A stretch of DNA of 64,000 bases. Origin: Pseudogymnoascus verrucosus. Taxonomy: Eukaryota. Within the stretch, counting starts at the first letter, position 1, and every line of letters starts with the position of its first letter. This document shows, piece after piece, positions 2,401 through 31,438 of the stretch. The notes beneath the pieces were generated by a model that was given only the letters and a program-made list of their open reading frames with translations, was not told the DNA's origin and made no database searches. The position numbers and the translations under genes are program-made. The stretch lies in assembly GCA_001662655.1 (NCBI GenBank), contig KV460269.1; one strand, 5' to 3'.

Positions 2401-3327
2401 TCACTAAGTGAGCCCGGGCTTGACTTTGACGACTACGAGTCTGATTGGTTTATTTTACGGACGAAGCTATAGAAGGTTCTTGGTTACGCGGTCATCGATG
2501 ATAAGATCGAAAATATGTGGCAAAAGAAACTAGAAATCGAGTCAATTAGCTGGCCTGTAGTACCTTTAATGGCGTTTTCCGACCCAGACGCGCACACCCT
2601 ACTCACCTTCGCTCACCTTTGCTCACCTAGGTACCGGATTATCCATAGCCATATAAAGTCACGGTGCATCGCGTTCATCACGTCTTAATAGAAGACCTAC
2701 TTCGTGCGTGTCGACGTAGCCGCCATTAGGTAGCTGAGGGGGACAACCGGATTATCATGAGCCATCAAAAACCGAAGGGCGGCGACGCTCACCCGCTAGT
2801 CCAAATGGCACCGTCTTAAGTATAAATCCACTTTAAGCTCGCGTAACACCTGGACGATAGTCTCAATCGTGCCAATAGGCATAGCGTGGAATCCGAGCCT
2901 TAAGGGTCATCTTGGGGTGTGCCGAGAGGTGAGCAGGGTGAGCAGCGTGAGGCGAGGTTATGTTTTCGCGTCAATTTCGTGTCACTCTCGTATTAGCTTC
3001 GTAATAGTACCAGAGTACTGCCGTTTTGGCTTACGTACCTTGTATAGCTGTCTTGCTCTTATTTTCCTAATTTCTTATGTGAGCGGCATATGCTCGAATG
3101 GCGACGGCATATGAGCTGCCATTTTGGGAGAAAACTGTGATAGGGGTAAAGCATTTTCCGACCATGTTTCGGCGTAACTTAGACCCGGGTTTTGGCTTTG
3201 AAAATTCCCGTGAGCTTTTCGAAGTCCCTTCTTCTCTTAGCAAGCTAAGAAGTACCAAAGTCAATGAGTATACGTGTGTGAAGCTGATTTCGAACTCTCC
3301 TGTACCATTTAATTCCACGACTTCAAA

Positions 3328-3936
3328 ATGTCAGACCCGCACGCACACAAAGACGACCAAAGTCTTAGCCCCCACAAAGAGCACGCCAACCTTCCCCGAG
3401 GCTACCGCATACTTGCCGGTCACCCCTCCATCCCAGAATACCTCGCCCTCCGCCGCCAAGCTGGAGGTCTCTCCCCAAAGACCGCAATTCAAGCTGAAAA
3501 GGCCATGGGTGGAAGCTGGTACGCCGCCTACATCGTCTCCACTAAAGCCAATCCTGATGCCACACAGCACCTTAACGAGTCGCAAGCCGATTTGATGAAC
3601 AGAAATGAAGGGGAGACTGCCGTTGCTATGGCGAGGGTAATTGGCGATGGGGGGTGGTACTTTCACATTATTGATTTTGCTGTATTGCCAAAACATCAGA
3701 GAAAGGGGTTGGGCCAGGCACTAATGGCGGATATACTTAACAGGATTCGGAAGGAAGCGCCACCGGGGGCCTATGTCAATCTTATTGCGAATGATAAGGG
3801 ACAGGCGCTATATGGAAAGTTTGGGTTCAAGGAGCCAGTGGGAGATCTTGGCATGGAATTGAGGATGGAGTACCCAGAGGGAGCTGGGCCGGATGATGAG
3901 AAGATTCCTAGAGTGGATGAGACCCGGGCTGGTTAG
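3328..3936 (+). CDS. GNAT family N-acetyltransferase
   Basis: 202-aa ORF with MARVIGDGGWYFHIIDFAVLPKHQRKGLG (acetyl-CoA motif A) and ALYGKFGF. Confidence 0.9.
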   Translation: MSDPHAHKDDQSLSPHKEHANLPRGYRILAGHPSIPEYLALRRQAGGLSPKTAIQAEKAMGGSWYAAYIVSTKANPDATQHLNESQADLMNRNEGETAVAMARVIGDGGWYFHIIDFAVLPKHQRKGLGQALMADILNRIRKEAPPGAYVNLIANDKGQALYGKFGFKEPVGDLGMELRMEYPEGAGPDDEKIPRVDETRAG

Positions 3937-4754
3937 GGAAAAGATGATGGCAAGGATGAGAAGACGGCGAATAAGGAAGTCTAGGTGGCTATAAGTAGTA
4001 GTAGTACAGTTTTCCCCTCAACGAAAATTCTTCTAACAGCTTCGTTAAGTAGCTCGTTATGTTTTCTACTGCGATATCGAGGACGTCGATTGAGTTCGAG
4101 AACCGAAATAGAAGAACATTAACGACGACTCCATGGCCGACCGCATCGATCTCCCTTCCAAGGGTGCTTAGTGAGGAGTAGATTAGAGAAGAGTACTATA
4201 AGGCGAGAGGGTTTTGCTTAGGACTATTAGCAGGCTAGCTAGGAGACAAGAGAACAACGGAGGCCAGTATTTGCAACAGATGGTGAAAGTCGGGGAGGGA
4301 GCTACCCTTCTATAGAGCGCGAAAACGGACCTAACGGCACTGTGCTGGTAAGGTAATTGCCGGTGAGCTAATCGACGGGTGGCTTTATTACCACATGAGC
4401 TATTACCACATGAGCCAGAACATGTAAATTATAAATCGAATTTGATTTACGTCGTAACATAAACAGCACACCGTCTATGCCATTACTCCGCCAAATAGTT
4501 ATATGGCCTCTCACTATCTATCATCTACGGTACTGACTGTCCAACCAAGTGAAAAACCTATCGACTGCTGGGTTGGCGTGTAAATTTCCCCAAGTGGGAT
4601 CTAGAGCTCTTAGTCCGAGGAGATGCTTAGGTTTGTCGAGACAGTCAATCTTATTGATTGCGATCATAAAGCTGACTTTGCATCAGCATTTTGAAGCCGT
4701 CAAGGTGGTGGACGAGCCTCGATATGGATTTGCAATCCCTGATCCCTGTTGTTG

Positions 4755-7700
4755 ATGATGAAAGGCGCTTTGCCACCCACAATTGTTATTGCCATGTAAG
4801 CACCGCCTCAAATCTCATTTTAGTTGATTCTCTAACCCAGGCAATAGATCTCAAAGCGATGCAATTTCCGGAATCACATTGACAATCGGCTACCTTGCTG
4901 CGCTGATTGCAGTCACATCGCAATGTCTAATGCCACGTGCCAAATTTATGAAGATCATGTTTTTTAATCTAATCGCAGCCTGCGTAGCTGCCTCACTTTG
5001 TTGTTTGGTCAGTTATTGTGCTGTTAAGGGTAGACAGAACAGTACACCTGCAGACGCTCTAGAGAGTGTTAAATCTGGATACAACAGCGATGCTTGCGCT
5101 ATTTCTGCTGTATTCCTGATTGTCATCATATGGTATGTTATTACTCCCTCATATATTTCCCACGGCACCTTGCTAGGATAGGATTAACTCGTTACGCTAT
5201 AGGGGCGCAAATTCCCTTCGCGCCTGGCGACCTATGGAAATGCAGGATCCGATGGTTGTCTTTTCGATTTTCTCTGTTGTCACGATCACTAGGACTGGAA
5301 CCTTCCTGACAGTAAGCCAAGGGTTGGAATTCATTGCAAGACTACTCAAAGGCTTTTTAATCGGGTTTGCCGTCTCAACTGGCGTTTCATTATTGATCCT
5401 CCCTATTACTAGCAGAGACCACGTCTTTCAAGACCTCAGAGAATCTGTCGCCCAGGTCGAAGTGATACTTCAGTTACTAATCTCCTTTGTTGGAGAAAGC
5501 TCGACGACGGAGCTGTGCACGGATCATGGTCTGTTAAGTCGACCACGAACAGCTCGAAGCACGCGCGAGATAGGAAACGAGAACGATTCCACCTCATCGT
5601 CGGGCATGGAGATCGAGCAGAAGCAACTAAAAGAGTCGATGGATAAGCTGAACGCCCTGCACAGCAAGCTTCGAGAGGATCTATTTTATGCCAATGATGA
5701 AATTGCATGGGGAAAGCTATCTGCTGGGGATATCAGTACAATAGCAGACATGTTCCAAAACATTATGTTACCGCTCTCTGGAATGGCGATTTTACCGGAG
5801 ACTCTTGAGATGATTGTGCAAAACAAACCTCTTTGCGAGATCTGTACCATGGCTAGAGGGTCAGATAATGAAACTACAAAACAGATGGAAACGCGGAAAG
5901 TTGTGGATACGCTACGCAAGAGTCTGATGCACTCTACTAATATTATCACAACCGGTCTCCAGTTCTTCCTGCTTGTATTCGAATTTATCAAACCTGAGCG
6001 GTTGGACAAGCAGCGAAGGTCTCAGAATATGGGGTCGGAGGGAAGAGACGAGGAGTCAAATGGAGAATATCTTGATCCACTGCAGCCTGACTTTGCAGCT
6101 CGGTTTGAACGAGCTGTTCATGAGTTCCATTTCCGTCGCAAGCACATCCTAGAGGCGTTATCGTCATTGGAAGCATTCTCAGGAGCAGACAAGTTACCCG
6201 ATGAACTTGAGTCCTCAAGAAACCGCTCGAGCTTCATCACATCAGGTCCGGATATTCGGCAAGAATTCTTCTTAGTCCTCTACGTTGGTCACCTGCAGGA
6301 CAGCCTTCTTAACGCCACAATTGAGCTTATAACATTCGCGAGCAGTAATGTATCGCATGGGACAAAGAAACGAAACCGATTAATATTCCCTAAGCAGAAC
6401 ATCATCCGAGGATGGTTTTTTCTAGCTTCAGAAAGAAGACAGTCCGATTCAGTTCGTAGACAGTCTTATCACGTTGACCCATCTTCGGTTCGCCAGGGTC
6501 AAGAAATGGAACATTTTCCGGACCCCGAACATCTCCCACCAGCGAACGCCTGGGAAAAGGGAAGTAATGTGCTCCGTTGGATATCACATAAGGGTAGATC
6601 TGAGTTCAGCATGTTCGGCTTTCGCGTGGCTGCTGCTTCCTTCTCAGTCGCAATTCTGGCCTTTTTGCATCAAACGCAGACCTTTTTTATCCGTCAACGG
6701 TGCATCTGGGCCATGATTGTGATTGTCATCGGAATGAGCCCGACGAGCGGACAGTCGATGTTTGGATTTATAGCGCGAATTGCGGCCACAGTTATTTCAG
6801 TAGTACTCAGCATTTTCGTTTGGTATATTGTCGATGGGAAGACAATAGGAGTGATTATCTTTCTTTATCTCGCAAATATATTCGAGGTAGGATACGCATC
6901 AGCGCTGTTCAATACAAGTTATTGCTAATCTTTCTTTCACCTAAACAGTATTATTTCTACGTCAAGAAGCCACAGTTCTTTGGTCCGTCTGTGATTGCCA
7001 TTGTTACTTTGAATGTCATAATCGGATATGAGCTCCAGGTTAGTTTTAGGAGCAATACTGCCATACCACAGTAGTTGACTGACCTTTTCCATAGGTTCGA
7101 AAGCTAGGTCTTGAAGTTGCCACCTCGAACGGCCAGCCATACTATCCCATTTACCTATTTGCTCCTTATAAACTAGCAGCTGTGGCAGCAGGATGTGCCA
7201 TCTCCTTTTTCTGGGCCATTTTCCCATACCCCATCACCGCCAAGTCGAAAGTAAGAAAGCTCCTTGGACGAAGTCTCTTTGTCCTTGCAAAGTTCTATTC
7301 CGCCATGCATACTACCATCGAGTTATGGATGAGCGACGAATTAGGCGACATCCAGAACCGTCATTCACCGTCTTTTAAACTTCAAGCTGCTCGCCATGAA
7401 CTCTTCCAAGAAGAAATGCTGCTTTTGAATAGCCTTCGTGTGCACAGTCATTTTACTACATTCGAACCCGCAATCGGTGGAAAGTTCCCGAAGCAGGTCT
7501 ATGATAGCATCATCTTGGAGATACAGAGGATTCTCACCAACATGTCCTTAATGGCCCATACAACGCAAAACCTTAAAGCTTTGCCCTTCGAATCGGAGGG
7601 CGGCAATTCTATGAGCGAAGATGACAAGTGGATATCACAGCTAGCGAGGATCGCGTTAGAATCTGCTGATTTTAAGTCTCATAGTACCACGTCACTACTG

Positions 7701-8083
7701 TGTCACCTCTCTGGTTCGATCATGAGTGGTGAACCGCTGCCTCCGTATTTGTCCACATTACATTCATTCCCTCTCGCACGACAACTGCAGGAGACCGATA
7801 GCGATTTGCTCAACATCCGGCACGTGGAGGACCCTGCGTTCTCTGCTTTCGTTTCGTTGGAGGTATTACGGTCGCAAATCGGGTTCAGCTTGAAGAATAT
7901 CCTAGAGTAAGTATCGAAAGCACTTTATTTTATCGTCTCATCTGTTGACAATGTATTAGTCATGTTAAATCACTTGTTGGGGAGTTGACCTTTGACTTCC
8001 ATGTCATGCAAACGCCAGAGTACTTGGAGTCGACTCAGTTAACAACATCAAATGGGAATCTGGATGAGGATGGCCAAGAATGA
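4755..8083 (+). CDS. Multi-pass membrane protein of the fungal FUSC/ArAE (ER transporter 6TM, Bre4-like) family. Multi-exon, 5' end frameshifted or truncated.
   Basis: Spliced reading MMKGALPPTIVIA|ISQSDAISGITLTIGYL..MPRAKF..DPEHLPPANAWEK..FGFRVAAASFSVAILAFLHQTQTFFIRQRCIWAMI..EPAIGGKFPKQVYD..LVGELTFDFHV. GT-AG introns near 4796, 5133, 6887, 7038 and 7907. Confidence 0.75.
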
Positions 8084-8594
8084 AGATATATTTGTCTTCC
8101 TTAGCAGTAAATATTAGCTGAGGGAAAACGGATCGGAGGGGTCTATCTAGCCTATTTGGTCTATTTTGAAGGTGCTCAATAATTTCAATTCCGTTAATCG
8201 TCACAACTTGTCATCTAATGCATAGCGAAGGACGAAAGAGCTCTGGCTCTAAGAGGATGGTGGCTTCTTGGTTGGAAGGCCCTACGGCCATAATTTTCTT
8301 CTACCTTGATTTTCATCGTCGGTTCATATCCCGATGGAAATAGAGCGAGGGAGTATCGGCCTAAGCATCCGCGGGGGAATGCCTTGATTAGAAGGACAAA
8401 ACTAAGTATTAAAGTGTTCGATAGAAGGCGAAACTGATAGTACATAGAGACAGAGCCTTAAACCAGCGATATTAGTGAAGTCTTACAGAAAAAGCCCGTC
8501 TCCTTATAAAAGGCTAAATATATATTTTGTAATTTATTATTAGATAGTTGTTAAGATATTCAGGTACAAGATCTATGATATTGGATGTATAATG

Positions 8595-8640
8595 GGGTGG
8601 GCCATCGCTTGGGTGGGCCACTGGCATGTGAAATACGTTA
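8595..8640. mobile_element. Solo pogo/Fot1-type terminal inverted repeat relic
   Basis: Reverse complement reads TA-ACGT-atttcacatgccag-TGGCCCACCC-aagcga-TGGCCCACCC. This is the same architecture (TA, ACGT, two internal direct repeats) as the TIRs of the element at 61043. Confidence 0.45.
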
Positions 8641-8693
8641 AACACATTAGTATTTATAGTATTTTTAATGCTATCTCTATCCGCTATAAGTGT

Positions 8694-10302
8694 TTATACT
8701 CTTATATTAGCCTCCCTAGCGACCTTTCGCGTTCTATTTAACCAATGTAGGACAGCGACAGGCATCCACCCCGCCACGGCAATAATGGCACAGTACACTC
8801 CCGCCGTAGCTGCGAAATTAAGAGTCTCGAACATAACCGGGATATAAAACGGCCCAATGAACCCCCAGATCTGTCGCAACAGATTAACAAAGAGTCCCAC
8901 CTCCGACGACCTCAACGGACAGCTATCGACAGCATACGTGATTAGCGTCGTAGTGATAATCTGATTCCCGAACGACGCAATTGCCGCCCCCACCATAGGC
9001 GTGACATTCCACACGCCATCCTCCGCGTTCTGTAGCTGCACGCCCCACACGACGAGGCCGGTGACCACGGCGGCGAAGCCGGGGTAGGCGAGCCAGAGGC
9101 GCTGGGTGGCGACGCGGACGCCGGCGCGCGCGGAGTAACGTGCTAGGAACCAATCGGAGGCGGGGCCGGAGAACTGCTCGCCGAGGATGGAGCCGAGGAT
9201 GATGGCGAGGTATTGGAGGCCAACACCTTGGGCGTCGAGGTGGAATTTCTCGCCGACGGCAAGGGGCATCATGACGATGATTGCGATGTTGGCGTAGCAG
9301 AAGACGAGTGCGTATGCGATGGCTGGGATGAGGACGGAGGGGTGCAGGGCGAGGTTGAGGTAGGAGAGGAAGGATGTGAGAGTGAAGGGGGCGGGGTTAA
9401 TACGGCGGATCTTGAAGGAATCGGCCCATGAGGCAGGCTTGGCGGCTTTGATGGTTGCAGCTGGGCTTGTCGAGGTGGAGGTGCTAGTAGAAGAGGTGGG
9501 GGTTCGGAAGCCCATGGTTTCGGATCCGAGGAAGAGATAGCCTAGGAATTGGCAGAAATTGACGATGGCGAAGATACCGAACATCCATTGGTAGGGCGCG
9601 CGCTGAATGAGGAAGCCGTAGAGGAAGGGGCCGAGGGGTGTGCCGATGGTGGTCATCAGGGTCCACCATCCCATCTTTTGGGCACGCTCGTGGCGGAAGA
9701 AGATGTCGGTGACAACGCCGCTACCGATACCAAGAGGAGGACAGATGAAGATTGTGTTGAGGATACGGGTTACCATTTGGGTGGCGTAGGTGTGGCAAAA
9801 GCAGCCGCCGATGTTGCAGATGCAGGCGCCTAGGACGGAGACGAGGAATATGGGTTTGCGGCCGAAGCGGACGGCGATGGGTGACCAGATTTGGGGGAAG
9901 ATACCCATTGTAAGGATCTGGAGTGGTTAGGATGAGATGTGTGATGTATTGAGGGGGACCAACTTGGACAGATGTCAGATAGGAGGCTTGGTGGATAGAG
10001 ATGCCGTACTTTTCAGCGAAAACGGAGTAGGCGGGGATGATGGCAGCAGCGGAAAAGGTTGCCATCATGGTGTGGAAAGCGACCATTAGCATGTTCATGT
10101 TCTTCATCCACAGCGGCCAATTAAGGGGGTCTTGTGGTAAAGAGGAAGGGAGAGGGTCAAGCTCTAGAGTGCCGTGTCGTTGCACAATGTATGCTTTGAG
10201 CTCTTCGCTAATGTATGAGCCGCATGTTTGGGTGGCGTCTTCGTTATGGGTGTGTATCATCTCCTTGCCCTCAGGGCAGGGTGATTGGCGGGTTTCCTCC
10301 AT
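8694..10302 (-). CDS. MFS transporter (drug:H+ antiporter-like)
   Basis: Exon 1 MEETRQ..QRHGTLELDPLPSSLPQDPLNWP..SYLTSVQ, intron 9918-9963, exon 2 WSPIAVRFGRKPIFL..DIFFRHERAQKMGWWTLM.. with about 12 hydrophobic segments. Confidence 0.9.
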
Positions 10303-11632
10303 TGACGAGGCGTTAAAGGTTGTCAAGAACTCCAAGAGAGAAAGGGAATAACGAGAGAAAGGACAAGGAAAGCTAAGTGAGAGTAGCGGAAGAAGTTAGG
10401 GTCTTTTCACGATTCAGGAGAGGAATGGAGGAACAGGAATATGACAGCTGACGGGAGGAAGATTTTATAAGGAGCAACGAGAGTTTTATGCACGACATTG
10501 GAAAGGTCTCTCTGCTCTCCGCACTCACAAGTTGGAAATGGGGGGAGAGGGGATAGATTGTGGAGAGTTGTGAGGGGAAGATGGAGTGTGGAGGTGGAGG
10601 AAGACGGAGTGTGGAGGTGGAGGACAAGCACGGAAATGGACTTTATTGGACGTATACCCACCTTGGGTCCGTAGTGTTTGAAGATACAGTGAACTTCGAA
10701 GGCGGGAGATTCGGAATACCCCATTTCTGAACTGAGTATCTGTTTTCCTATCCCAGGGTAGTTGCCGTTTTTTTAGGGAAAGATATCGTTAGGATATTGA
10801 CACTGCGGAGAACTTCCGCGGTGGGGATGTGTGTAGTCCACGAGTCAATCGATATTAATCACCCTATCAGATGATAGACTCACATGTAGGGCCTATATAC
10901 CGCAATTTAACCTTATCCTACAGCCTTGACCCTAATTGTGATTTCCTGAGCGCAAACCAACTTTGTTGAATTCTATAGGGCTACAGCCTTTACTTATGCC
11001 GTGGCCCCGAAACCTATTCTACATACGAAGCTACACAAAAGCAGGTCACCTGACCTTTGCTTAGTGTCTCGGGAAAGCCATATCTGACGACATTAAGCTC
11101 TTGGTCCGGCATAGTAGTCTTGATTTCCCTGAAATTCAGTGATCCACGACCTAATAATCCTCCATCCACTGACCCTCCACCCAATTATCCTCACTCGATG
11201 ATTCTCAACGGGATCATCGGGTGGTGAGATATCATAGATACCATCGGGTGGTACCATGGGGTGAGAATAGTTAGATCCACCTGGTGCAGGTGCAACTATA
11301 TTGGGTATATATTGTATGAATTATATGGAGACTTTGGAACGACTTTCTTTGAGCTAATGATGTTGATGGGGTAGGTGCTCTATATATGACGCGGGCCAGA
11401 ACAGACACAACCGAAGAATAACGGGAGCTGTATGGAGAACTTAGGGAAATGGTAAGCGACTATGCTTAGTTTAGTGATAGCTTGGCACATCCCCCAGCGA
11501 TATTGTAGGAAGGCTGGGAAGTGGAGAAGTGGAACCAACCGGTACCCCGCGGTTTCTCCGTAGTGGCATGAAAATACGGCAATTGACATTACAGTGAAGG
11601 CGTAAGCCACAACCAGAATCCAAGAACCTCAG

Positions 11633-11678
11633 TTACCCCGGCTGAGAGTATGTCCGGCAATACTCTCAGCCGGGGTAA
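11633..11678. promoter_or_regulatory. Perfect 19-bp inverted repeat (8-nt loop) in the divergent MFS / monooxygenase intergenic region
   Basis: ttaccccggctgagagtat-gtccggca-atactctcagccggggtaa. Contains CCG/CGG triplets and SYGGRG-type sites. Regulatory role is inferred. Confidence 0.55.
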
Positions 11679-11871
11679 ATGTAGCCTCAAATCTCGGCAT
11701 CGGTAGTCAATCAAAAATTCGACATCTCCAACGTATAAACCTTGAATCTCTTTCAATGCTGTATACGTTTCAAGGTAGATATCTGCTGTTAAAAATAAGC
11801 CGCAGCTGGCAGATATTTGAGCACATCTTTAGTGTGTCCCTTATACACCCTTCTCCCGCCCTACAGGAAAC

Positions 11872-12156
11872 ATGACTCAGCATGTCGACGTCCTGATCTG
11901 TGGTAGCGGCTCTGCTGGGATCTGCGCAGCAACATGGCTCGCCCGATATGGGCTTCGGTGCAAAATCCCCGAATCACATGGTTACGAAGTCAAGGGAGTC
12001 CAGGTTGATAGTAAGGCAGCTGCAGATCTAGAGTCCTACCCTGTGACTGTGGTTGCTCTGAAAGATGTAGTAGAGGAAACTTTCAAGGCAAAGTATGCAC
12101 TAGTGAGTATTGCCTAGCCCTGATATAGTATTAATTCTCATCCTACTAGGCATGTA
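11872..12156 (+). pseudogene. FAD-dependent (phenol 2-monooxygenase-like) monooxygenase remnant
   Basis: MTQHVDVLICGSGSAGICAATWLARYGLRCKI (Rossmann GxGxxG) is joined directly to HGYEVKGVQVDSKAAADLESYPVTVVALKD..FKAKYAL, followed by an intron (gtgagt..ctag). There is no DG-motif continuation, indicating an internal deletion and 3' truncation. Confidence 0.75.
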
Positions 12157-12560
12157 CTGCGGCTATGACCGTGACTGCTTGTGAGAGCCTCTGGGATCAA
12201 GGATGACGTTATCAGAGGGACGAGTTTGCGAATTGACAGGAATCCTTCGAACACAACCGACGTCTATCGTCCAGGGTCGCTTCCGCGGCTAAAACCATCT
12301 GTCAGTATTCTGCTCCCGTATTCCCGCCAAAGGGTCATTGCTTTACATACACTGCCACTGGACACGACTGTCTCCATCTGTGACGATGAGAGTAATACTG
12401 GCTTGTTTGGAGAGAAAGGACTCTGACCATCGTATTTGTTATCATGTTTGCAGTTGGAGCAAGTAAGGTAAATGGAAATTTTGACGGTGACTATATAAAT
12501 TGCGAAGATGGAATTCGCCTTAAATAAGTTATGTGAAAGTAATAGATCCATCAAAACATC

Positions 12561-13697
12561 CTAAGAAGCCTCCGCTGGAAACTCAGTTGAAACTCTTTTA
12601 GCAAGCCACTCGTCTGTTGTCACCGTCTGACCCCATTCTCCAACCATATTCTGAGCCCATTTACCCTTCGCCTCACACCCAGGGAGAGTTTCAATAATAA
12701 ACTCTGGGTCAGGCATCCCAAAAAAAGCCAAGGAATATCGATCTACAACTGAGCCGGCAGCAAGTGGAACAGAATCTTTTCTGTTGCCTATCATAGATTC
12801 TCTCGGAGCCACGACTTGATGCAAAGCGCTCTTCGATCTCCCATTTGTTTGCCGGTCAAGAATATCGCCGACGTCGACAATGATCTTCCCTTGCTTTGGG
12901 ATCACGGGCCTGAAAGCCTCACCATCGTGGATTTCGAGGCCACCGATACTATCGTTAAAAACGATCGTCAGCTGTTGAAAGTCTGTGTGAGCGTTCATCC
13001 GGTGAACCTCACGGCTTTTGAGCGGGCCAACCTCCATTGAGGGAAAATAGTTGAAGCTCATGTGGCAGAAATCGCAGGTGTGCTGGTTTGAGAGATATTT
13101 CGGACTACCAAGTTTCAATAACTCCGAAATGTTCTCCAATAGCTGGTGATCCAGGCGAGTACATGCGTCCCACCACGAGTCGTAGAAGCTTCGGAATCCA
13201 GGAAAGATGTCCTCAGGGAGCCAGAGGTTTCGGCCAACATCGACTTGTAAGTCATGTGGATTGCACAGTTCAAGACCCTCGTGCCTCTCCGGTGTGGTCT
13301 TGCGTAGCTCCTCTAGCTCCGCGGTGTCCCAAACCAGCTGGCTGACCAATACCTGTCCAATTTCGAGGAATCCTAGATAGTCATTGACGGCACCACTTGG
13401 GGGATGGGCGATGCGTTTCTTTACATCATGCGGAAGCGCGAAAAAGCGTCTCGACTAGATATGTTAACAATTATTCTAAGATGAGAATCCATGGCGTCTA
13501 CTTACCCATTCAAAAGCCTCGTCGATAAGTTTTTGCGGAATACTATGATTGGAGAGGTATATGAAACCTAAAGACTGGAAGGCATCGTCCAAGTATTTGA
13601 AGGCCACTGAGCGCTCATTTTGAGTGCCATTTAACTGGCGGAAATCAATGACGGGAATGTCTGCGGGCTCATCGAGATATGTTTCGACACGATGCAT
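12561..13697 (-). CDS. 2-oxoglutarate/Fe(II)-dependent oxygenase (IPNS/DIOX-like), copy 1
   Basis: Exon 1 IPVIDF..DDAFQSLGFIYLSNHSIP..AFEW, intron ~13456-13505, exon 2 SRRFFALP..NAHTDFQQLT..GGLEI..KSALHQV..RYSLAFF. HxD..H facial triad and RxS present, open frame. Confidence 0.9.
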
Positions 13698-14554
13698 ATT
13701 TGGTGATGTTTGGCAGGTGATGTGTGGGACAGGACTAAGGTGTTGCTGGAGAATAGATATGGTCCTATAATTTTAACAATTCTAAATAGTCCATTTAAAC
13801 GGAAATTGGGTTTGATCTGGTCCGGAAGTCGAGCTAGAAACTCTGAACAGCTTTTCCTAGTTTTGGGGTCACTCACGCAATGCACGTCTCACAGCAACTG
13901 TAGCACCACAGCTAAAGTAAGACTTCTGGGCTGGATTCGAACGAAACTAGTAACCTGGAAAAAAATTGAGTCTTAGTTGACTTATTGCTGCAAATATTAC
14001 CTCATCGCCTAGAACTTCAACTGGGGTTGCGCTTCTACGGTGCAAGCTCAGCTTGTCTCAAACCCCTTTCCGGGGACTAAATTGGCCAATATAAGTGGCC
14101 ACTGCATATAAGTCTCTTACTAGACCTATGATACCACTCTCTACCACTATAATATGTAGGTGCCTATTTGTGTGGAGCCCTTTAGTAACCGCGGAGAAAT
14201 TGGGATCTATATGTCTTTTCTAAAGGCGCTGTTTGTTGTAGTGTGCGTTGTAGCACAATATGCTCCGGCCGGCATCGGAATCCTGCCCTATTGCGAATGG
14301 ACAATTCCAAGGTAAGCTGAAAACGCAAATGAGTAATATAATATTGGAAATATACTGCATTGTAAGAGAATATGAATCCACTGTAGTACCTAACGCGATA
14401 ATCCATGCGACGATCTTTGTGGCACGAGGAGCGCGGTTTTATATCTCTCACGACTAGCCGTATTATGTATGACTAGTCAGATTATACGTTATTTTGAAAA
14501 TTGTATTTTCAATGACTGCTCAAAACTTTTATTTCCTAAAAACGAAGATTTGTG

Positions 14555-15707
14555 CTAAGATGACGCAGCAACAGGACCTGGCTTCTCTTGACGTTCATAC
14601 TCAAGAGTAACTCTCTTATTCATCCAGTCACCTGCGGTCATGTTGTCCTCCCATTCCAAAGACTCCCATTTCCCCTTCTTCTCGCACCCAGGCAGTGACT
14701 CTACCAACATCTCATAATCAGGGTGCGCATAGAAAGCAATTGCATGTCTATCAACCACTGTGTCGTTGTCCACTTCCTTCCCATACATAGATTGCCGTGG
14801 ACCAGTCACATGGTGTAGAGCACTCTTCCACCTCCCATTGGACTGTTTCTCAAGCATGTCCCCAATATGCACAATTACAGTTCCTGCCTTTGGAAGCACA
14901 GGCCTATAAATGCCGGCTTCATCATCGTGAATTTCCAGGCCGCCCACCATGTCTTGGAACAGTATGGTCAATTGCCCAAAGTCGGTGTGGGCGTTCAGAC
15001 GTCTTGCTTCGCGGTTCATCAGGGGGGAGGTGGGCATGGAAAGGTAGTGCAACCAGCTCATGTGGCTGCAGTTGCGGCCGGGAGTCTGTTGCTTGGACAG
15101 AAACTCTCGGTCTTTGATTTCCAAGATTTCACAAAGGTAACCCATCAGTTGGTGTTCCTGACGAACACAATGGTCCCACCACTTTTCGATAAAGCCTCAG
15201 AACCCAGGGAAAATATCCTCGGGCAGTAGACGGTTTGGATACGGGTTTGCAGTTGGATCATTAGTGGTGTATGGGTTACCGATCTCGAGGATTTCCTTTT
15301 GTTCCGGTTTGGCGGTATTGCGGATATTTTCAACCTTTTCGGCATCCCAGATTCCTTGACTGACTAGGCCGAGACCAACCTCTGCAAACCCTCGGTGATC
15401 AGTTGCACTTCCGGGGTGGGCAATCAGTTGCTTGACGTGATGTGGGAGATCGAAGAAGCGTTTGGACTGGAAGGATTAGCGAGGGCAAAAAAACGGAGGA
15501 GGAAGATAGACTTACCTATGCGAAAGCTTCCGCGACCATTTCCTGCGGAATGCTATGGTTTGATAGGTAGATGAATGCAAAAGTTTGGAACGCATCGTCG
15601 AGCTGCTTGAGTGCTGCATTGCGCTCTTGTGGTGTTCCGCTAGAGAGCAAGTTGAAATCGACAACAGGAATGTTCGCGGGTTCAACAGTCTGAGTAGAAA
15701 CAGTCAT
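14555..15707 (-). pseudogene. 2OG/Fe(II)-dependent oxygenase, copy 2, with two nonsense codons
   Basis: Same exon structure as copy 1. TAG at 15518-15516 replaces Trp before the splice donor. TGA at 15199-15197 replaces Arg (PGFR in copy 1). NAHTDFGQLT..NGRWKSALHHV retained. Confidence 0.85.
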
Positions 15708-15974
15708 TGTGAAAATAATTTTCTGTTGTAAAGTAGGGATATAGAATTGGCTTTCCGTTTAAAACCGTCTTATGGGCGTCAATGTGAGCTTTATATATGT
15801 GTGAGTGATCTTGACACTATGGAAAGCCCTTGGTAACTGGATCATAAAGCATACCTGTCAAGTATCACGGCTACGGCAAAAGGGCTGATGGGTTATTATT
15901 ACAGTGCAAAGCTTTCAGAGAAATTATATACATAAATACTAATAACAGCGGTAAATACTGACATAGATCGGCAA

Positions 15975-16400
15975 GTGCATTGTCTTGCATTCAATTTTCA
16001 GCTTCAAACTTGCGAAATGTACTGTATTCATTGCATTTGAAACAAACATATCAATTTTTTCTAGAAATATATCGATTTTTCTGGCAACCTGCATGTCACC
16101 TGTGTCTATAGAACCCCATATTATAGCAGATGCACTGTGGTGCGTTCACCTTTCAGCTTACTCAGAACTCGTTATGGCGTGATGTGGTTATTGTATTTGA
16201 AATATATTGGTTTTTTTCTAGGAGCCCGCATACCGCCCCTGCGACTTCAGAGCCATATAGCTTAGCAACTGCATTCATTGCCTTGCATCTAATTTTCAGC
16301 TTACTCAAGACTTGCCGTGGCATGTCGTGTTCATTGCTTTGAAACGTATCGGGTTTTCGTACCAACCCGCATACCGCCCCTGCGTCTTCAGAAATCCGTT
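15975..16400. repeat. Three degenerate ~140-155 bp tandem units in the divergent oxygenase/orphan-ORF promoter
   Basis: Recurring blocks tttcagctt (~15996, 16151, 16294), attg..tttgaaa, and cccgcataccgcccctgcg (16225, 16366). Confidence 0.7.
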
Positions 16401-16541
16401 GGCAAACGTGAATGACGAAATAACATACGCCTGGCAGACCGTGGTGCAATTGAAGCCGTTTAAAACATATCAGGTAGTATTATACCACTTCCCATACTTC
16501 TCAAAATTCTCATTCTATTTTCTCATCATCTGGTCAACGAC

Positions 16542-18188
16542 ATGGACACTCATGTAGTTGTGGCCGATCTTCTACGCATGGAAGGCCAGAAGCCTTCAAT
16601 CCGATTTGAAGATGTTCAGCTATGCTCCGTTTTGCACAATCATGACGACCATCCTGTTATTGGCTTCTATAAGCTCCGCAATCGCAGTGTGAAGGCGAGA
16701 AATGACCACAACTCCGTTTCTCACGAGAAACACTGCAAAGCAATGTCAAAAAGTTTCCATACTGCCACCATATTGTCACAACTTCTCAATGGGAGGCTAC
16801 AAGTCACTACTCGCCAAGAAGAGACAGAGATCTCTACGGAAAGAAATATACCTTCTATGATTGTTGGAGATACAGTCATCATTGCGGATGAAACTTTCTC
16901 TAATCCGCAAGAAGTAGGCGCTCATAGTTGGAACATGTTCTTATCAATGAACTTTCTCTTTCCGAAGGCCCAAATCGGCTGGAAATACGGCCTCACGTCT
17001 ACGTCCACTCAGTTCATGCAAATATCTTGTCCGAATTTAAAATCCGATGACTCTCTCTTCACAAAAATGGGGACCCTAATCTACGACAATATGGATATAG
17101 TATCTGGCATGTGTCTCTTCAACGGAACAATTCTAAAAACCAGTATTTCTGAAGAAGAGGGTGGCGTGGATCCCGACAAAATCACACACATCAAGCCTAC
17201 AATTAACGAGACGGATTATATTGCTCGGTCATCATCTGCCATCGCGGATATAGCATCAATGCTTACCGCCAGGATCCGAGAACAAAACTCCAAACAACTA
17301 GTTCGCATCAAGTTGGATAATCCCAGTTTTCAGTACTATCATGAGGTTGTCGATAAGTTCGAGAAGCATCTTTGTACTGGCATAGAAGCACTAATATGGA
17401 TGGAGGCCGTTGATATTCGGCATGGCCAGATAGCCAAAGTGTTCACGAACTCTGTCCAACACCAGCTTCGACGGCGAGGCGTAAGCCCTGACAGCTATGA
17501 AATCAATATACCCTCGAGAATCACTTCCTTTGCTCTGTCAATTAGGGAGGCTTTGCAGGATCAGAAATGCCCTTCTTTGCAAACTGTTCTAGAAATACTT
17601 GATTCTGAAAAAGATGGGCTCTGGCGAGCTTTCTACCAGTTCGTTCCGGTAAAGGAGAAGCCTCAAGATTGGAAAGACTTGAGCTACCTATTCTACGTCT
17701 TTGAGGTGATCAAGTCAGCGCTTGTCGAGTCAAACACAGGATATCAAGCCGCCTCCAGACTCGATAGAACAAGCGACACCCAGCCTCCATTGAATGATCA
17801 ATTAGTTGTGAAGTCTGCGAAGAAGAGGAACTCAAAAGTTCAATCAAACTCTCGTCGATTGATCATAAACATTGATGACTCTGCAGAACGTCGAATCTAC
17901 TCCTGGTCACAGGAAATGCTGATGAAGATCCGACAATCTCATTGCAACATGTCAAATTCGACACTGGTCGAGGTATATCTGTGTAGAAGGGTTTTCGTCA
18001 ACGGCAATAAAACCAGGAACCGGCTGTACCATCAAGATCCTATGCCCATAGCTCCTATGCTATCTCGTTTATCGGAGCATGGTGGTGATGGAGGCCAGTT
18101 AATGAAGCCATTCGATATGGTTCATCAACTTTATGGATCTGATTGTGCCCAAAATCTTGAGTTGTTATTTTCTCAAGTAGGCTTGTAG
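16542..18188 (+). CDS. Intronless 548-aa protein, candidate arginine-containing cyclodipeptide synthase (RCDPS, AnkA/AvaA-like)
   Basis: No standard domain recognisable. C-terminal RRLIINIDDSAERRIY carries DDxxE (residues 445-449, nt 17874-17888). Size and tailoring-gene neighbourhood fit the RCDPS family. The CDS itself is well supported; the function is inferred. Confidence 0.65.
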   Translation: MDTHVVVADLLRMEGQKPSIRFEDVQLCSVLHNHDDHPVIGFYKLRNRSVKARNDHNSVSHEKHCKAMSKSFHTATILSQLLNGRLQVTTRQEETEISTERNIPSMIVGDTVIIADETFSNPQEVGAHSWNMFLSMNFLFPKAQIGWKYGLTSTSTQFMQISCPNLKSDDSLFTKMGTLIYDNMDIVSGMCLFNGTILKTSISEEEGGVDPDKITHIKPTINETDYIARSSSAIADIASMLTARIREQNSKQLVRIKLDNPSFQYYHEVVDKFEKHLCTGIEALIWMEAVDIRHGQIAKVFTNSVQHQLRRRGVSPDSYEINIPSRITSFALSIREALQDQKCPSLQTVLEILDSEKDGLWRAFYQFVPVKEKPQDWKDLSYLFYVFEVIKSALVESNTGYQAASRLDRTSDTQPPLNDQLVVKSAKKRNSKVQSNSRRLIINIDDSAERRIYSWSQEMLMKIRQSHCNMSNSTLVEVYLCRRVFVNGNKTRNRLYHQDPMPIAPMLSRLSEHGGDGGQLMKPFDMVHQLYGSDCAQNLELLFSQVGL

Positions 18189-18821
18189 GGATTGATTGAT
18201 ATGTGCGTTCTAATTAGAAATATGATTGCATTCAACTTTGAAAACCTCTAAAACTACCCATGCTTGCTCAAATATCCTCAACAATCATGTTAACTTCTCC
18301 ACATTTCAGCTATTATTCTAAGTTCTTGCTAATTCCTCGAGTCTGTGGTTGTATGTGGGAGGTAGGTGAATACAGGGAATATGAGGTGCTGTTGTGTTGT
18401 AGTGGGAATGTGGTGGGAAAATTTACCTCGCCACAACAACATACTAATCTCGATTCCAAAAAACTCTGACTGAGACCATGATTTAGCTGGCTTAGGTTCG
18501 GATCGAATATTACGGGATACATGAGGTAGTCACAAAAGTGTAGATCAAGTTACTTCACATTCAGCCTTGTTATTTTTCGGGCAGTTAAGGAATGACATTA
18601 TATTAGTTGATAAGAAATTAGTAAAATACAACGGTATACCCCCCCCCCCCCCTTCCTCTTTCTTCTCGACAGATGAGTCTTTGCAGGTCGCCCGCCTTCC
18701 TCCCATTTCTCGCATTTATCTCGTCTTCCCTCCTATATTTCTATTTAGCTGTCATTTCCTAGTACCTAATCCCCAACCCGCTCGAAGGTTGGTGCTAGTT
18801 GTAAAGCAAATCTTGTGCTGT

Positions 18822-19784
18822 CTAGCCAACTGTTCCCGTTGTCGTGTTTCGATACTGCTGCGTAGGATTTAGTTGTGTCGCATATTCCTGTGTTGTTGCA
18901 TACTGCTGTGACGGTTGGGAATATGTAGATGTTGCCGCCGTGCCTTGAGTCTGCTGTGGCTGGACATATGTTGCAGGTTCGGTTCGGTACTGGGCAGTTT
19001 CCGCTGGTGTGGTTCGGTACTCTCTGGTTTGGTTGAAATTCTCATGGTAAACGGGGGCTACGCCGCTGTTGACATGGGTGTCTTCCTGTCTCTTGATCCT
19101 TGGAGTCTCCTCGTGGACTTCACGGCGGGAGCGGTGTTTCGTCAAAAAGTAAAGGCCCTATGGAGATATCAGTTATTTGTTGAGATGTGAGAATACTGAA
19201 ATGAGAAATCTTACCAGTAGGAAGCTGAGGAGCCAGAAGATGCCTCCAATGAAACTCCATGCAAGAGTTGCTCTCCAGCTGCTACATCCAGCGCCATTAA
19301 AGCGATTAAATGTCCCTGCAGGTTGTAGATACCATCTTCCCCATGCCCAACTCCAGCTGGTTCTGAACCAGCTTGAGTTGCAGCCTGAGCTTCCAAGCTA
19401 TTCATATATGTTAGCTTTATGAACCAAATAAGAACTAGCGTTGGATAGGTAGTAACCCACATTTATAAGAAGTCCAAAGGCAACCATCCATAAGATGAAC
19501 ATGATGAGATCGAGAGGGAAGGCGTAGAATTGGTATTTGAGAGGTAGCATGAAGAGTAAAGAGAAGAATATAGCGATTCCAGCAATGGTGATCGCATATA
19601 TGATTCGACGGCTATTGAAACCACCTCCCTCGTGAAGGTTATGAAGGTAGCGGCCTAACAATCCAGCGACTATGGCGGCAGAGATGAGTTGCATGAGACG
19701 AAAGAATACAGATGCAAATCTTGATCCCTTAGACCCCCCATCGGAGGACCTGGACCTATTACCACCACTTGGAAAAAGACCCAT
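18822..19784 (-). CDS. MARVEL-like four-TM membrane protein with Q/T-rich tail
   Basis: FFRLMQLISAAIVAGLLGRYL..FPLDLIMFILWMVAFGLLIN|..GCSSWRATLAWSFIGGIFWLLSFLL|GLYFLTKHR.. with two GT-AG introns. Confidence 0.75.
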
Positions 19785-21199
19785 CGTTGAAAATAATGTG
19801 GTGTTTTGGACTCGGTAAGTTGTTCGAAATTTGAAGCCGCAATATTAAAGGAGAGAGCTTCCGGTAAAGTTATACATTGGGAGGCTCGCTGGCTATATAG
19901 CTACTCGCAGGCATGTTCGGCAGCGTGAGAACCTGGTATCTTCGTATTGCCAAAAGAGGAGTTGGCTAGACCGCAGAATCCTCAACTTCCAAGAAAATAT
20001 GGCGGGAGATAGACGAAATGTTTAACCTAACTAATCAGTTTGACCTCCTTGAGACTCATAAGTGGTAGATCAAGCTACCCATGACAGCATAGCTATGAAA
20101 CTTTAATGTAAGCGTGGGAATCAAAATTGTTTTGTCCTCTATCGTAGACTGCTGGCCAACTAACCAACAGCTTCTTTCATCCCATGCCTCGCCACTGCCT
20201 TGATATAAGGACTTCAGCAGCATACAAAGGCAGATTTTGTGTAGCTGTAATCGCGCCCTACAATTACGTTGTGCCATCCCGTTTGGAATCGGGGTCAAAT
20301 CAGAAGCAGAGTTAAGTTAGATGACGTTTAAGAAGTATTTTGGGTATGTATAAAAGTATACTCTTTAACTGCAGGTTTGATGAACTTGGCCAAATGAACT
20401 GATTCCTTCAGATCATCTTTTCAGACTCCACTTTAACCGCAACGCATCCTTTCATTTATATCCGCGGTGGATTTCAAACCTTATCGGCGACCCTGCAGCG
20501 GCATCCGCCCGGCCTGACAGATTCAGACTTGGGGTCTACTCGGGTCCTGGTGCTACATTGACGCTAATCGGTCCGTTTGCAGCAGCATTAAATGGCACTT
20601 TGAACATTATGACATCATTGTAACTTGGAACTGGAATTAGTCGCCATACAGCGTATAAGAACAATAAGGGAATAAGCGGGGTCATGACAGCGATTGATAT
20701 TGTACAAGTTGGTCATGTGTTGTTGCCATTGACTGACTGACGTAATCATCGGTGACATCAACCCGTTCTCACTTCAGGCTATCACTTTGTATGCGCAGGG
20801 CAAGGCACTCCAGCTAGGAACTGCATGGAGAAAAACAGAATATGTACCGTTCAAATAATATCCAATAATATCTCTGCAGTCTCCGAACTATATGTAAGCT
20901 GGCCGTTATAGCTTATTGCCGTGATTGGGGCCAACGCCGCCAAATTATCGACAAGTTAAATAATTTAATTTCAAATACGCAGCTCAAAATAGCTGAATGA
21001 AAGTACAAGTTACCTCCATCCATTCAAATAATTCACAAACAAGCCTTAAAATTCCACACATACGTGAGCTTAACTTATCTTAACTCTCGAAACCTCTTCT
21101 GGCCCGTGTAACTTGGCTTCGAGCGAGCTGACCAGCAAGACAAAGTATCGCAACTTAATTCTTCAGTTGCGTCGATATACTTTTGAACAGTAAGATTAG

Positions 21200-24844: not shown

Positions 24845-26300
24845 ATGTCAAACAAGTTGATAATGGCTTCACCCCCACAATTTAAAGAGTAGGTAGTAGG
24901 CTAGTACCTATCGGGGTGTCTTGCTAAAATTTGCTATAGTGAAATAAACCCGCGCCGAGGCCATAAAGGCTCTGATATCATAGGGCCCCGGAATCCTAAT
25001 CGAGAGCACCAGGAGCCCGATTTGGTTTCTCCTCCATCAATAGATGCAGGTTAGTAACGAAGCCACTGGAGACGATACAATACTTACTGATATTTATAGG
25101 GAAGCTCGCAAATATGAAATGGTTCGTTTAACAAAACACCTTTAACATAATTCAGTGTTTTTTTAACTGTTGAAAAAGGTCGTTCGCAGATTCTCATATG
25201 CGTTTAGAAGAAGGAGGGTGGGCCCGAGAGACTACAGTTAGAGAGCTTCCTACGTCGACCGAGCTAGCCGCTGTAAATATGAGACTCGAAGAAGGTGTCT
25301 ATCGTGAGTTACACTGGCAAACAGAGGCCGAGTGGGCGTATGTTTTGGAAGGGTCTTGCCGGATCACTGTCCTCGACACAGAGGGTGGTTGTTATATTGA
25401 TGACTTGCAAAAAGGCAATCTGTGGTATTTTACAACTGGATTCCCACACAGCATTCAAGGTGCGGTTCAGGGCTTTTGATAATGACTTTCCCACAAATAT
25501 GGACTAGGAATTGGGAAAGAGGGCACAGAGTTCTTGCTTATCTTCGATGACGGCAACTTTTCTGAGGATTCGACTTTCCTTCTGACAGACTGGCTTGCCC
25601 ACTCTGATAAAAACGTTCTAGCAAAGAATTTTAATATCCCTCGAGGAGTATTCAATAACCTTTCCCAGAAGGGTGAGCATTTTTAACCCTGTAAGCAAAA
25701 CCTCGCTGATCTTTGGTAGAGAAATACATATTCCGAGGCACAATCGCACCGCCTCTAGACGAAGACAGAAAGCAAGTCAACCCCTCTAAGCACCGATTCA
25801 CACACCGTATGCTAGAGCAGGAGCCTATCAAATTCGCCGGAGGGGAAGTACGAATAGCAGACACGAAGAACTTCCCTATCTCGCAATCTGTCGCCGCTGC
25901 GCACGTACTCATTAATCCTCATGGCCTGCGAACCATGCATTGGCACCCGAATGCCTCTGAATGGTCATATTTTATTCGAGGAAAGGCGCGAGTAACTATC
26001 TTTGCCTCGAACGGGACGGCCCGCACCTTCAATTACCAAGCAGGAGATATCGGCATAGTCCCTCGAAACATGGCGCACTTTGTAGAAAATATTGGTGACG
26101 AGCCTGTCGAGATGCTGGAGGTCTTTCGCGCGTCTACATTTCAGGACTTTTCACTTGAGCAGTGGCTCGCTCAGACTCCACAGACCATGGTGGTTGAACA
26201 TCTTAATTTAGATGGAGGTAACGCGAAGAGGTTCCTCGACTCGCTCAGCAAAACGAAGGTTCCTGTCAAGCCTGGGCGACGGAGTTCTTTTTCTCTTTAA
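24845..26300 (+). CDS. oxdC: Oxalate decarboxylase family bicupin, no signal peptide
   Basis: Spliced: ..[93 protein letters not shown]. Five GT-AG introns. Start codon is tentative. Confidence 0.85.
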
Positions 26301-26897
26301 GATTAGGTATTTGTTATATTATCTGTGTTGTTTACATTTTTTCAAAGAAAAATCATTCCTGAATCCCCATCACGAAGGAGTCGGCATAAGTAAACTCTAA
26401 AGTTAGAATATATCCGCCACGGACTTAAACTTTAATAAGACCAGCTTACTCGTTTGCTGAAGTTGCATCAAATGCTTCACTCTACAACAGAGAATTTGGT
26501 ATGCCATTGTAATGAGTATTATGTGGGCCTCGAAGTTGAAGTTTGGCTGGTATTTCGAAAGAACTTGGATGGGGTTGATCGCTCCTACCCCCGCAATACC
26601 GGACCGCTGACCCACGTGTGGTTTCCACCTATCGCTTCGTGACTGCCCCAACTCCGGCGGGGGTGGGGAACATTGGTCCCTTCTCGAGATGTGTATTACC
26701 CTTTTGTGACCGGGACATGTTTCCCGACAAATGTCCAGGCATTATTTGAACCATTGGCGGGAATGTTTCAGCATGGATAGCACGATGGGGGTAGTGATTT
26801 ATCCGTGATAGTTTGTCCCTCTTTTCTACCTTTATTAGAGTACCATGTGCGGCTCCGAACATCCTGTCCTGTCCTGAAAGCGCCACAATAGAGAACG

Positions 26898-28416: not shown

Positions 28417-28536
28417 ATTGGAGCATGCATCTAAGGTTATATAGACTGAATTTACACGTTTAATTTATCCTTCATAAAAAATGATTTACCATAGATGCGG
28501 AGATAAAATGAATGCGTCTATACAAGAATGTTTGTG

Positions 28537-30774: not shown

Positions 30775-31438
30775 TTATTCCCTTATCTATGTTGGGCCAT
30801 TTGACTCCTTTCACTTGATAACTTCAATAAAAGATACCGAGGTAAAACTCCCAGGTTGAGACAGTCGTCTGCTTTGCTTTACTGAGGCCACCATACAGCA
30901 TCAAGGAAATCGCGGAGCTATACGCGCCGAACTACTAGTAACGAATAGGTTCCTAGTTGCACATACCTCACTATAATCTCGGAGCTTGCATGCGGCAAAA
31001 TTCACCTCCCGCCGGAGTTTATATTGTTAGTTTGGATGGGGTGCATTCAGCCTCGACATCCCGTTTTACCCGATGGGGTATACCAGGTGGGCTCGGATCA
31101 CACTGCGACTCCTAGGTTCATTCCTTGTCGCCGCTTGTCAAGTGGACAAGCGCCACAATGACAATGTGGGGTAATTGGTGGGTTAACTACGGCCGAGGGA
31201 CTTTTTTGAAATATATCTTGACCTGTGGGGTAATGAGGGGAAACTAGAAGGCATACGCGGGCCCGTCAACAAGGATGGAGCCTCTGAAATTGTGGCACGG
31301 CGATCCAATGACCCTGCATCGCATGCAGGATAAGATCACCATGGTTGCCCAGTTCCAAAAGAGAGAGTATTCAAAGTCGTCTCCGGCTCGGATTTCCAAG
31401 ATTCGAGAGACTCAACCTACGAATCTCACACAAGCACA

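Follow-up and report, generated by a model that had tools for sequence, protein, structure and literature searches.

Arginine-containing cyclodipeptide synthases (RCDPSs) are described in a review as tRNA-dependent enzymes that were once annotated as hypothetical proteins and are without a Pfam family; the same review names C193, a DDXXE motif, Y392 and Y515 as the essential residues of AvaA. In the accessible portions of other sources, RCDPS enzymes are reported to convert Arg-tRNA and a second aminoacyl-tRNA into cyclo(Arg-Xaa), and the available part of a preprint presents AvaA of Aspergillus versicolor as the only characterized cyclo-Arg-Trp synthase. RCDPS clusters were also found via antiSMASH 7, as reported in the available section of a 2025 genome paper. 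Here, we describe a locus of this type in a stretch of 64,000 nucleotides from Pseudogymnoascus verrucosus (contig KV460269.1 of assembly GCA_001662655.1), referred to throughout as the window. The locus spans positions 8694–18188 and comprises an RCDPS homologue, two genes of the iron/2-oxoglutarate (Fe/2OG) oxygenase family (oxygenase 1 and oxygenase 2), a fragment of an FAD-monooxygenase (FMO) gene and a major facilitator superfamily (MFS) transporter gene. Most probably, this is a small Pseudogymnoascus-type RCDPS cluster that is partly degraded, its partner oxygenase, oxygenase 2, being cut by two nonsense codons.

The gene map was drawn from Pfam scans of stop-to-stop open reading frames (ORFs) and from direct reading of the strands. 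The window is fungal, with short introns that carry GTAAGT-type donors, and its best protein matches are 95–100% identical to named Pseudogymnoascus proteins. The synthase gene (16542–18188, plus strand) is a single open exon encoding 548 residues. A search of a large protein collection returned 40 homologues of this protein; it is 41% identical, over 94% coverage (E 6.2e-102), to a Penicillium shearii protein named by its source 'Arginine-containing cyclodipeptide synthase eshA', and 40% identical to ASPVEDRAFT_32121 of A. versicolor. In an alignment of 34 synthase sequences, the Cys191 of an SGxC motif is invariant (34/34), as are four tyrosines (Y265, Y385, Y453 and Y479). The DDXXE motif is present as D445-D446-S-A-E449, with D445 and E449 invariant and D446 found in at least 90% of the sequences. 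Because of the EshA homology, the lack of a Pfam family and the invariant Cys, DDXXE and Tyr residues, the gene is, to judge from its homology, an RCDPS homologue and a member of the AnkA/AvaA/EshA family; the earlier note on this DNA had proposed the same identity for the core ORF, and it is borne out here. In the synthase tree, the window protein falls into a separate clade of eight rows together with a lichen-fungus protein (Shimodaira–Hasegawa-like approximate likelihood ratio test, SH-aLRT, 98). No member of this clade has been characterized, so the second amino acid, Xaa, cannot be called. One synthase relative of the 83% type, P0135, lies on a 23-kb Logan contig and has an unrelated C-terminal tail in place of the conserved PLDVVRxLYG end; it may be a damaged copy or an artefact of ORF calling.

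The synthase is predicted to adopt a fold resembling class-Ic aminoacyl-tRNA synthetases (those for tyrosine and tryptophan, TyrRS/TrpRS), as do bacterial cyclodipeptide synthases (CDPSs). A profile search of PDB sequences with the synthase gave no hits at E≤1, and the ESM Atlas yielded no usable match. The modeled fold fits a 2026 paper which, in its accessible portion, lists the RCDPSs as a third CDPS subfamily, and it would support a CDPS-like way of working for the fungal enzymes in spite of the lack of sequence similarity. By analogy with Ser37 of the bacterial CDPSs, the invariant Cys is the probable acyl-carrying nucleophile on this predicted class-Ic scaffold.

Oxygenase 2 (15707–14555, minus strand) carries the Pfam domains DIOX_N and 2OG-FeII_Oxy and comprises two exons (15707–15516 and 15466–14555) separated by an intron at 15515–15467. 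Its start codon is divergent from that of the synthase across an intergenic region of 834 bp (15708–16541), presumed to be a shared promoter. Exon 1 reads EMVAEAFA and then runs into an in-frame TAG (15518–15516) directly before a GTAAGT donor; at this site, oxygenase 1 (EAFEW, same splice site), V501_01466 of a close relative and other homologues have Trp. Exon 2 reads DIFPGF, followed by an in-frame TGA (15199–15197) and then GFIEKWW, and here Arg is found in oxygenase 1, P0067, V501_01466, P0072 and P0074. P0067, P0072, P0074 and P0076 all have Trp and Arg at the two sites. The HTD...H iron site is encoded downstream of both stops, and a comparison with V501_01466 and the consensus reveals four more changes at conserved residues (G to A, M to I, D to N and R to M), with V501_01466 in the family state each time. 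Thus, what the window holds beside the synthase is not an open oxygenase gene of the clade that contains the Epichloe protein LolO; a gene of that clade is present, divergent and close by, with TAG and TGA in its frame.

Logan contigs of one run, X1, are identical to the window over 3000–20000 save for 2 nt inserted at 18638 (outside the genes); X1 could be the source of the window's DNA. For a near-identical run, X2, whose main contig departs from the window at 10 letters (9 of them listed), neither stop is among the differences listed. Moreover, a public gene model of 146 residues, the same in two named strains (V499_00866 = VE01_09376), stops precisely at the TGA and sidesteps the TAG only by omitting the seven residues VAEAFAW. 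Since the X1 contigs are identical, no X2 difference is listed at the stops and the public model ends at the TGA, the stops do not appear to be an assembly slip, and oxygenase 2 reads as a pseudogene cut by two nonsense codons before its iron site. Both stop-making changes are C:G to T:A transitions. Repeat-induced point mutation (RIP) was considered as their origin and rejected: none of the genes has the composition left by RIP (TpA/ApT 0.53–0.63), and DNA identity between the two paralogues is as low as about 63%.

The pairing of this oxygenase with the synthase is found well beyond Pseudogymnoascus. In 11 named genomes, the accession numbers or locus tags of an oxygenase-2-clade gene and an RCDPS gene directly follow each other: A. 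carlsbadensis (KAJ0419630/31), A. versicolor (OJJ05765/66), A. tubingensis (GAQ41672/73), A. vadensis (PYH68219/20), A. luchuensis (OJZ88659/60), A. brasiliensis (011238/011239), Penicillium griseofulvum (KXG49264/65), P. coprophilum (KAJ5170828/29/30), P. concentricum (KAJ5365369/70/71), Calogaya cf. arnoldii (KAL8654638/39) and Pseudogymnoascus VKM F-4519 (KFZ17957/58). In six further genomes (P. paradoxum, Trichophyton mentagrophytes, T. tonsurans, T. benhamiae, T. verrucosum and Nannizzia gypsea) the two genes lie three apart. Furthermore, both genes lie together on each of four contigs no longer than 26 kb (10895, 11307, 16633 and 25731), as judged by identical contig size, and a fifth (14339) holds a synthase with an oxygenase from outside the partner clade. 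In an oxygenase tree of 61 rows, built without the window's own fragment (P0070), all co-located oxygenases but P0060 fall into one clade of 27 rows (SH-aLRT 100), which includes oxygenase 2 and, nested within it, LolO; the synthase tree has the same groupings. These data indicate that the synthase and a LolO-clade Fe/2OG oxygenase form a real and conserved genomic pairing, evident in 17 named fungal genomes, and the co-occurrence that the earlier note had proposed to look for in other genomes holds for this pair by accession order. Two oxygenases, both of the partner clade, enclose the synthase in P. coprophilum and P. concentricum, and two oxygenases share a 25.7-kb contig with P0019; clusters with twin oxygenases thus appear to recur in other fungi.

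At 90% identity, one cluster of partner oxygenases spans Onygenales and Eurotiales, grouping Trichophyton species with P. concentricum, A. versicolor and P. griseofulvum, and a second groups Nannizzia with black aspergilli and P. coprophilum. Such clusters amount to unusually high conservation across distant fungi and suggest horizontal transfer of an ava/esh-type cluster. The literature within reach on RCDPSs together with oxygenases, subscription papers lying outside it, comprised only the review, passing mentions and one title. That title, of work by Niwa et al. in 2025, reportedly mentions aza-polycyclic products, implying oxidative cyclization of RCDPS products, a reaction to be expected of a LolO-like partner oxygenase.

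Oxygenase 1 (13697–12561, minus strand) lies 857 bp from oxygenase 2 and encodes an intact protein of 361 residues in two exons (13697–13506 and 13454–12561) around a 51-nt intron (13505–13455). It matches PF14226 and PF03171 (E 6.4e-15 and 9.7e-12), is identical letter for letter to the public protein P0124, and keeps H220, D222, H276 and R303, the HxD...H triad and 2OG-binding Arg, all at invariant alignment columns. The two oxygenases are old paralogues, 49% identical as proteins (E 1e-99) and about 63% identical over 423 nt of DNA. Oxygenase 1 falls outside the RCDPS-partner clade on a branch of 0.6, with orthologues found only in Pseudogymnoascus, and has Ser at the W271 site, a Trp in 9 of 10 aligned sequences. 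Run X2 carries a 4-nt insertion at 13341, inside this gene, and at the same site 16 residues are missing from the public protein V499_00868, a gap best read as a spurious intron laid over the insertion.

The synthase gene has a strain-specific change of its own. Residue 260 (codon 17319–17321), which lies in an L-D-[IV]-P-S motif beside the invariant Asp259, is Asn in the window protein and Ile or Val in 20 of 20 other aligned sequences; it is the single residue by which the window protein differs from V499_00865, which has Ile. The underlying nucleotide, 17320, is A in the window and X1 and T in X2 and in a third run, X3. A near-relative synthase, V501_01465, itself has F133M and R293W at invariant positions. 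A fourth run, X4, has no cover over approximately 12155–17674 and no bridging contig, and it supports no conclusion as to whether that strain has the core genes.

The FMO fragment (11833–12117, plus strand) retains a GxGxxG N-terminus and about 50 residues before a stop after 94 codons. It matches positions 2–36 of the 349 in the PF01494 profile with 21.8 bits, just under the cut-off of 22, and is thus short of a full-length domain. The fragment consists of two pieces (11839–11978 and 11978–12109). In each of the four runs, these pieces match a single other contig at approximately 80–88% identity. As both pieces match the one contig, with about 280 nt gone between them, the sequence is apparently a fragment of a gene present elsewhere in the genome. 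The MFS transporter gene (10302–8694, minus strand) encodes 520 residues and matches PF07690 (MFS_1; E 5.6e-29); its two-exon model (exon 1 10302–9964, a 46-nt intron at 9963–9918, exon 2 9917–8694) is open.

Several observations weigh against a partly degraded RCDPS cluster, or against parts of that picture. For every gene, the support consists of sequence, joined for the synthase by a predicted structure. The public A. versicolor protein does not match the residue numbers given in the review for AvaA (C193, Y392 and Y515); its Cys is at 170, and equivalence of the catalytic residues with those of AvaA would follow from their conservation. Gene adjacency in other genomes was taken from the order of accessions or locus tags and from identical contig sizes, which stand in for gene order at the DNA level, and contig size ties 10 of the 40 synthase homologues to an oxygenase match (74 oxygenase candidates were scored). 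Among ten distant RCDPS-like loci in metagenomes (28–32% identity), tblastn found no oxygenase or MFS neighbor, and nor did it find GNAT, ArAE or FMO genes nearby; the 42 ORFs taken from four of these loci have, by Pfam, only HET, DDE transposase, cupin and sugar-transporter domains. With an oxygenase neighbor in none of the ten, the pairing is therefore not superfamily-wide. The synthase ORF is wholly open, so to speak of decay in the core gene goes beyond the evidence, and an intact oxygenase 1 could keep the pathway oxidative. Some of these metagenome loci have features of their own: in L004, L007 and L009 the RCDPS-like gene is found a few kb from HET-domain genes, and in L001 near a DDE transposase.

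How much of the cluster still works can be read in several ways. That it is fully functional, with both oxygenases acting on cyclo-Arg-Xaa and the stops due to sequencing errors, read through or spliced out, is very improbable. Although the catalytic residues of oxygenase 2 are all still encoded downstream of the stops, and the gene has diverged only slightly from the intact V501_01466, the two nonsense codons are independent of each other and fall at conserved Trp and Arg codons, and four further replacements affect conserved residues. The X1 contigs are letter-identical across the gene and no X2 difference is listed at the stops; the TAG closes exon 1 immediately ahead of a consensus GTAAGT donor, and oxygenase 1 is spliced at the same point; and the two-strain public annotation ends at the same TGA and must drop seven conserved residues to dodge the TAG. 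A second reading accepts the loss of oxygenase 2 as tolerated and makes oxygenase 1 a recruited paralogue that carries out the tailoring, whether the same step or a new one, such that an oxidized Arg-diketopiperazine is still made. The intact metal- and 2OG-binding residues of oxygenase 1, its place inside the cluster and the recurrence of two-oxygenase clusters in P. concentricum, P. coprophilum and the contig of P0019 speak for it. However, in those other clusters both copies belong to the partner clade, whereas oxygenase 1 sits off-clade on its long branch and is confined, as far as orthologues were found, to Pseudogymnoascus; the Ser at the Trp site is a further point of difference, and the X2 insertion and the gap in V499_00868 argue against strong selection to keep the gene. 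We think this reading unlikely. At the other extreme, the whole cluster would be dead or silent in this strain, with the synthase impaired as well by I260N and nothing made. In favor of this, N260 is private to the window and X1 (X2, X3 and V499_00865 have Ile), partner oxygenase and FMO are lost already, and each close strain has a lesion of its own. Against it, the 548-codon ORF of the synthase is wholly open and a single residue off V499_00865, and the deviations at invariant positions in V501_01465 suggest that single changes of this kind are tolerated or common in the genus. A wholly dead cluster is accordingly a doubtful proposition, if a less far-fetched one than intact function.

The remaining question is one of extent rather than of function, and here the chances seem evenly divided. 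The synthase–oxygenase pair may be the only unit, in which case the MFS, GNAT and ArAE/FUSC genes and the FMO fragment are unrelated neighbors and there is no 10-kb cluster. Consistent with this, the genes of the right flank (MARVEL, cupin, GH1, GH95 and a sugar transporter) point to ordinary carbohydrate metabolism, the MFS gene is set off from oxygenase 1 by dispersed repeats and a gene fragment, and about 4.8 kb, with a large gene for a membrane protein, separate the GNAT gene from the MFS gene. On the other side, the two genes that separate synthase and oxygenase in Trichophyton and P. paradoxum could be MFS-, GNAT- or ArAE-like, and MFS exporters are common in fungal clusters. Further afield, the RCDPS and the LolO-clade oxygenase could be an old, co-inherited two-gene module of Leotiomycetes, lichen-forming Lecanoromycetes and Eurotiomycetes, within which LolO arose, and the Pseudogymnoascus/Calogaya clade might make an undescribed, oxidatively cyclized Arg-diketopiperazine; we offer this tentatively, as possible but not the outcome to be expected.

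Under the favored reading, that of a partly degraded cluster with a dead partner oxygenase, the synthase would furnish cyclo(Arg-Xaa), and in intact relatives the oxygenase may hydroxylate and/or oxidatively cyclize the diketopiperazine; the cyclization is proposed because the clade contains the oxacyclase LolO. The present strain would be without the oxidation step and would yield at most unmodified cyclo(Arg-Xaa) or a compound made by the lineage-specific oxygenase 1, and the neighboring MFS pump may export it.

On the right, the synthase gene is followed by a MARVEL-domain gene, then by about 5 kb without a recognizable gene, and then by cupin, GH1, GH95 and sugar-transporter genes. Given this flank, the cluster, if it is one, ends at 18188. 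The genes further right form a carbohydrate-use run at 25174–33184, comprising a bicupin, a GH1 of beta-glucosidase type, a GH95 of fucosidase type and a sugar transporter. On the left, the window carries a single-exon GNAT acetyltransferase gene (3328–3936, plus strand; 202 residues, Pfam Acetyltransf_10/1/7) and a multi-exon gene for a membrane protein with ArAE_2_N, FUSC_2 and BRE4 domains by Pfam (approximately 4828–7910, plus strand). In X2, one base is missing at 6767 in the long ArAE/FUSC exon; barring an error in the contig, the frame of this gene would be shifted there. Short dispersed repeats were found just downstream of the MFS gene (8505–8640), where other contigs of the same genomes overlap, and at 10937–11036, where depth spikes, loose ends and extra contig records occur. 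At these two sites, and likewise at 3002–3066 and 19205–19291, many further contigs of all four runs overlap, with depth spikes and loose ends; a repeat search found no second copies of them within 1–24000. A 60-nt unit is repeated three times in tandem at 2224–2403 (85–100% alike) and probably codes for a D/E-rich repeat in a left-flank gene. Neither tRNA genes nor Rfam families were found in 1–26000. The stretch 44000–50000 has a G+C content of 0.55–0.59, against 0.43–0.51 elsewhere in the window, with strong skew swings up to 56000.

Set against these results, the earlier note is borne out in part, both as a map and as an account of function. Pfam recovered every gene that it had named (MFS, FMO remnant, two oxygenases, RCDPS, GNAT and FUSC/ArAE) where it had placed them or nearby, and the divergent promoter region that it had put at about 830 bp was measured to within a few nucleotides of that figure. 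Its twin oxygenases are indeed paralogues, but as a pair they amount to one intact gene and one pseudogene. The oxidative tailoring of cyclo-Arg-Xaa that it had envisaged seems sound for the ancestral cluster, whose partner oxygenase is conserved in many fungi, but not as it stands for this genome, where the partner is truncated, the FMO is a fragment and oxygenase 1 is off-clade. The claim that such a pathway is invisible to mining based on nonribosomal peptide synthetases and polyketide synthases (NRPS/PKS) is literally true but dated, as antiSMASH 7 (2023), in the available part of its description, has a rule for arginine-containing cyclodipeptide clusters. The case confirms that an RCDPS cluster is recognizable from raw sequence alone.

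The locus is a modestly useful natural knock-out series, and not a new kind of pathway. If the two-gene module is real, strains with an intact oxygenase 2 (V501-type), with a dead one (the window) and with both broken would form such a series for the product and for the reaction. For a search of this genome for the product, it matters that the tailoring oxygenase appears dead here and that an open copy exists in a close relative. The public gene models mask these lesions, through a truncated model of 146 residues in one case and a spurious intron in the other. The dependable mark of the cluster would be the synthase together with a LolO-like Fe/2OG oxygenase, rather than transporter or acetyltransferase neighbors.

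Overall, RCDPS clusters have been known since 2023, and the locus is a further case from an uncharacterized clade, set apart by decay with strain-specific lesions. It resembles the described RCDPSs (AnkA, AvaA and EshA; Yee et al. 2023, Nat Chem Biol) in the full-length homology of its synthase, the lack of a Pfam domain and the presence of conserved Cys, DDxxE and Tyr residues, and its adjacent oxygenase is of the same clade as those beside the A. versicolor and Penicillium synthases. It differs in that the synthase is only 40–41% identical to the named members and belongs to a separate clade, and in that the partner oxygenase is a putative pseudogene. The gene set of the ank cluster given in the review (an NRPS-independent siderophore (NIS) synthetase, an ABC transporter, a pyridoxal phosphate (PLP) enzyme, an FMO, a methyltransferase and an ATP-grasp protein) is not the set found here. 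Oxygenase 2 shares with LolO, the Fe/2OG oxacyclase of the Epichloe lolines (a role given in a review), its clade, the DIOX_N and 2OG-FeII_Oxy domains and the HxD...H...R residues; unlike LolO, to which it is about 50% identical, its putative substrate is a diketopiperazine and not a pyrrolizidine, and the copy in the window is truncated. From the bacterial CDPSs (NYH and XYP) and the class-Ic aminoacyl-tRNA synthetases, finally, the synthase is distinguished by the absence of detectable sequence similarity; it is twice as long as the bacterial CDPSs and carries Cys in place of Ser.

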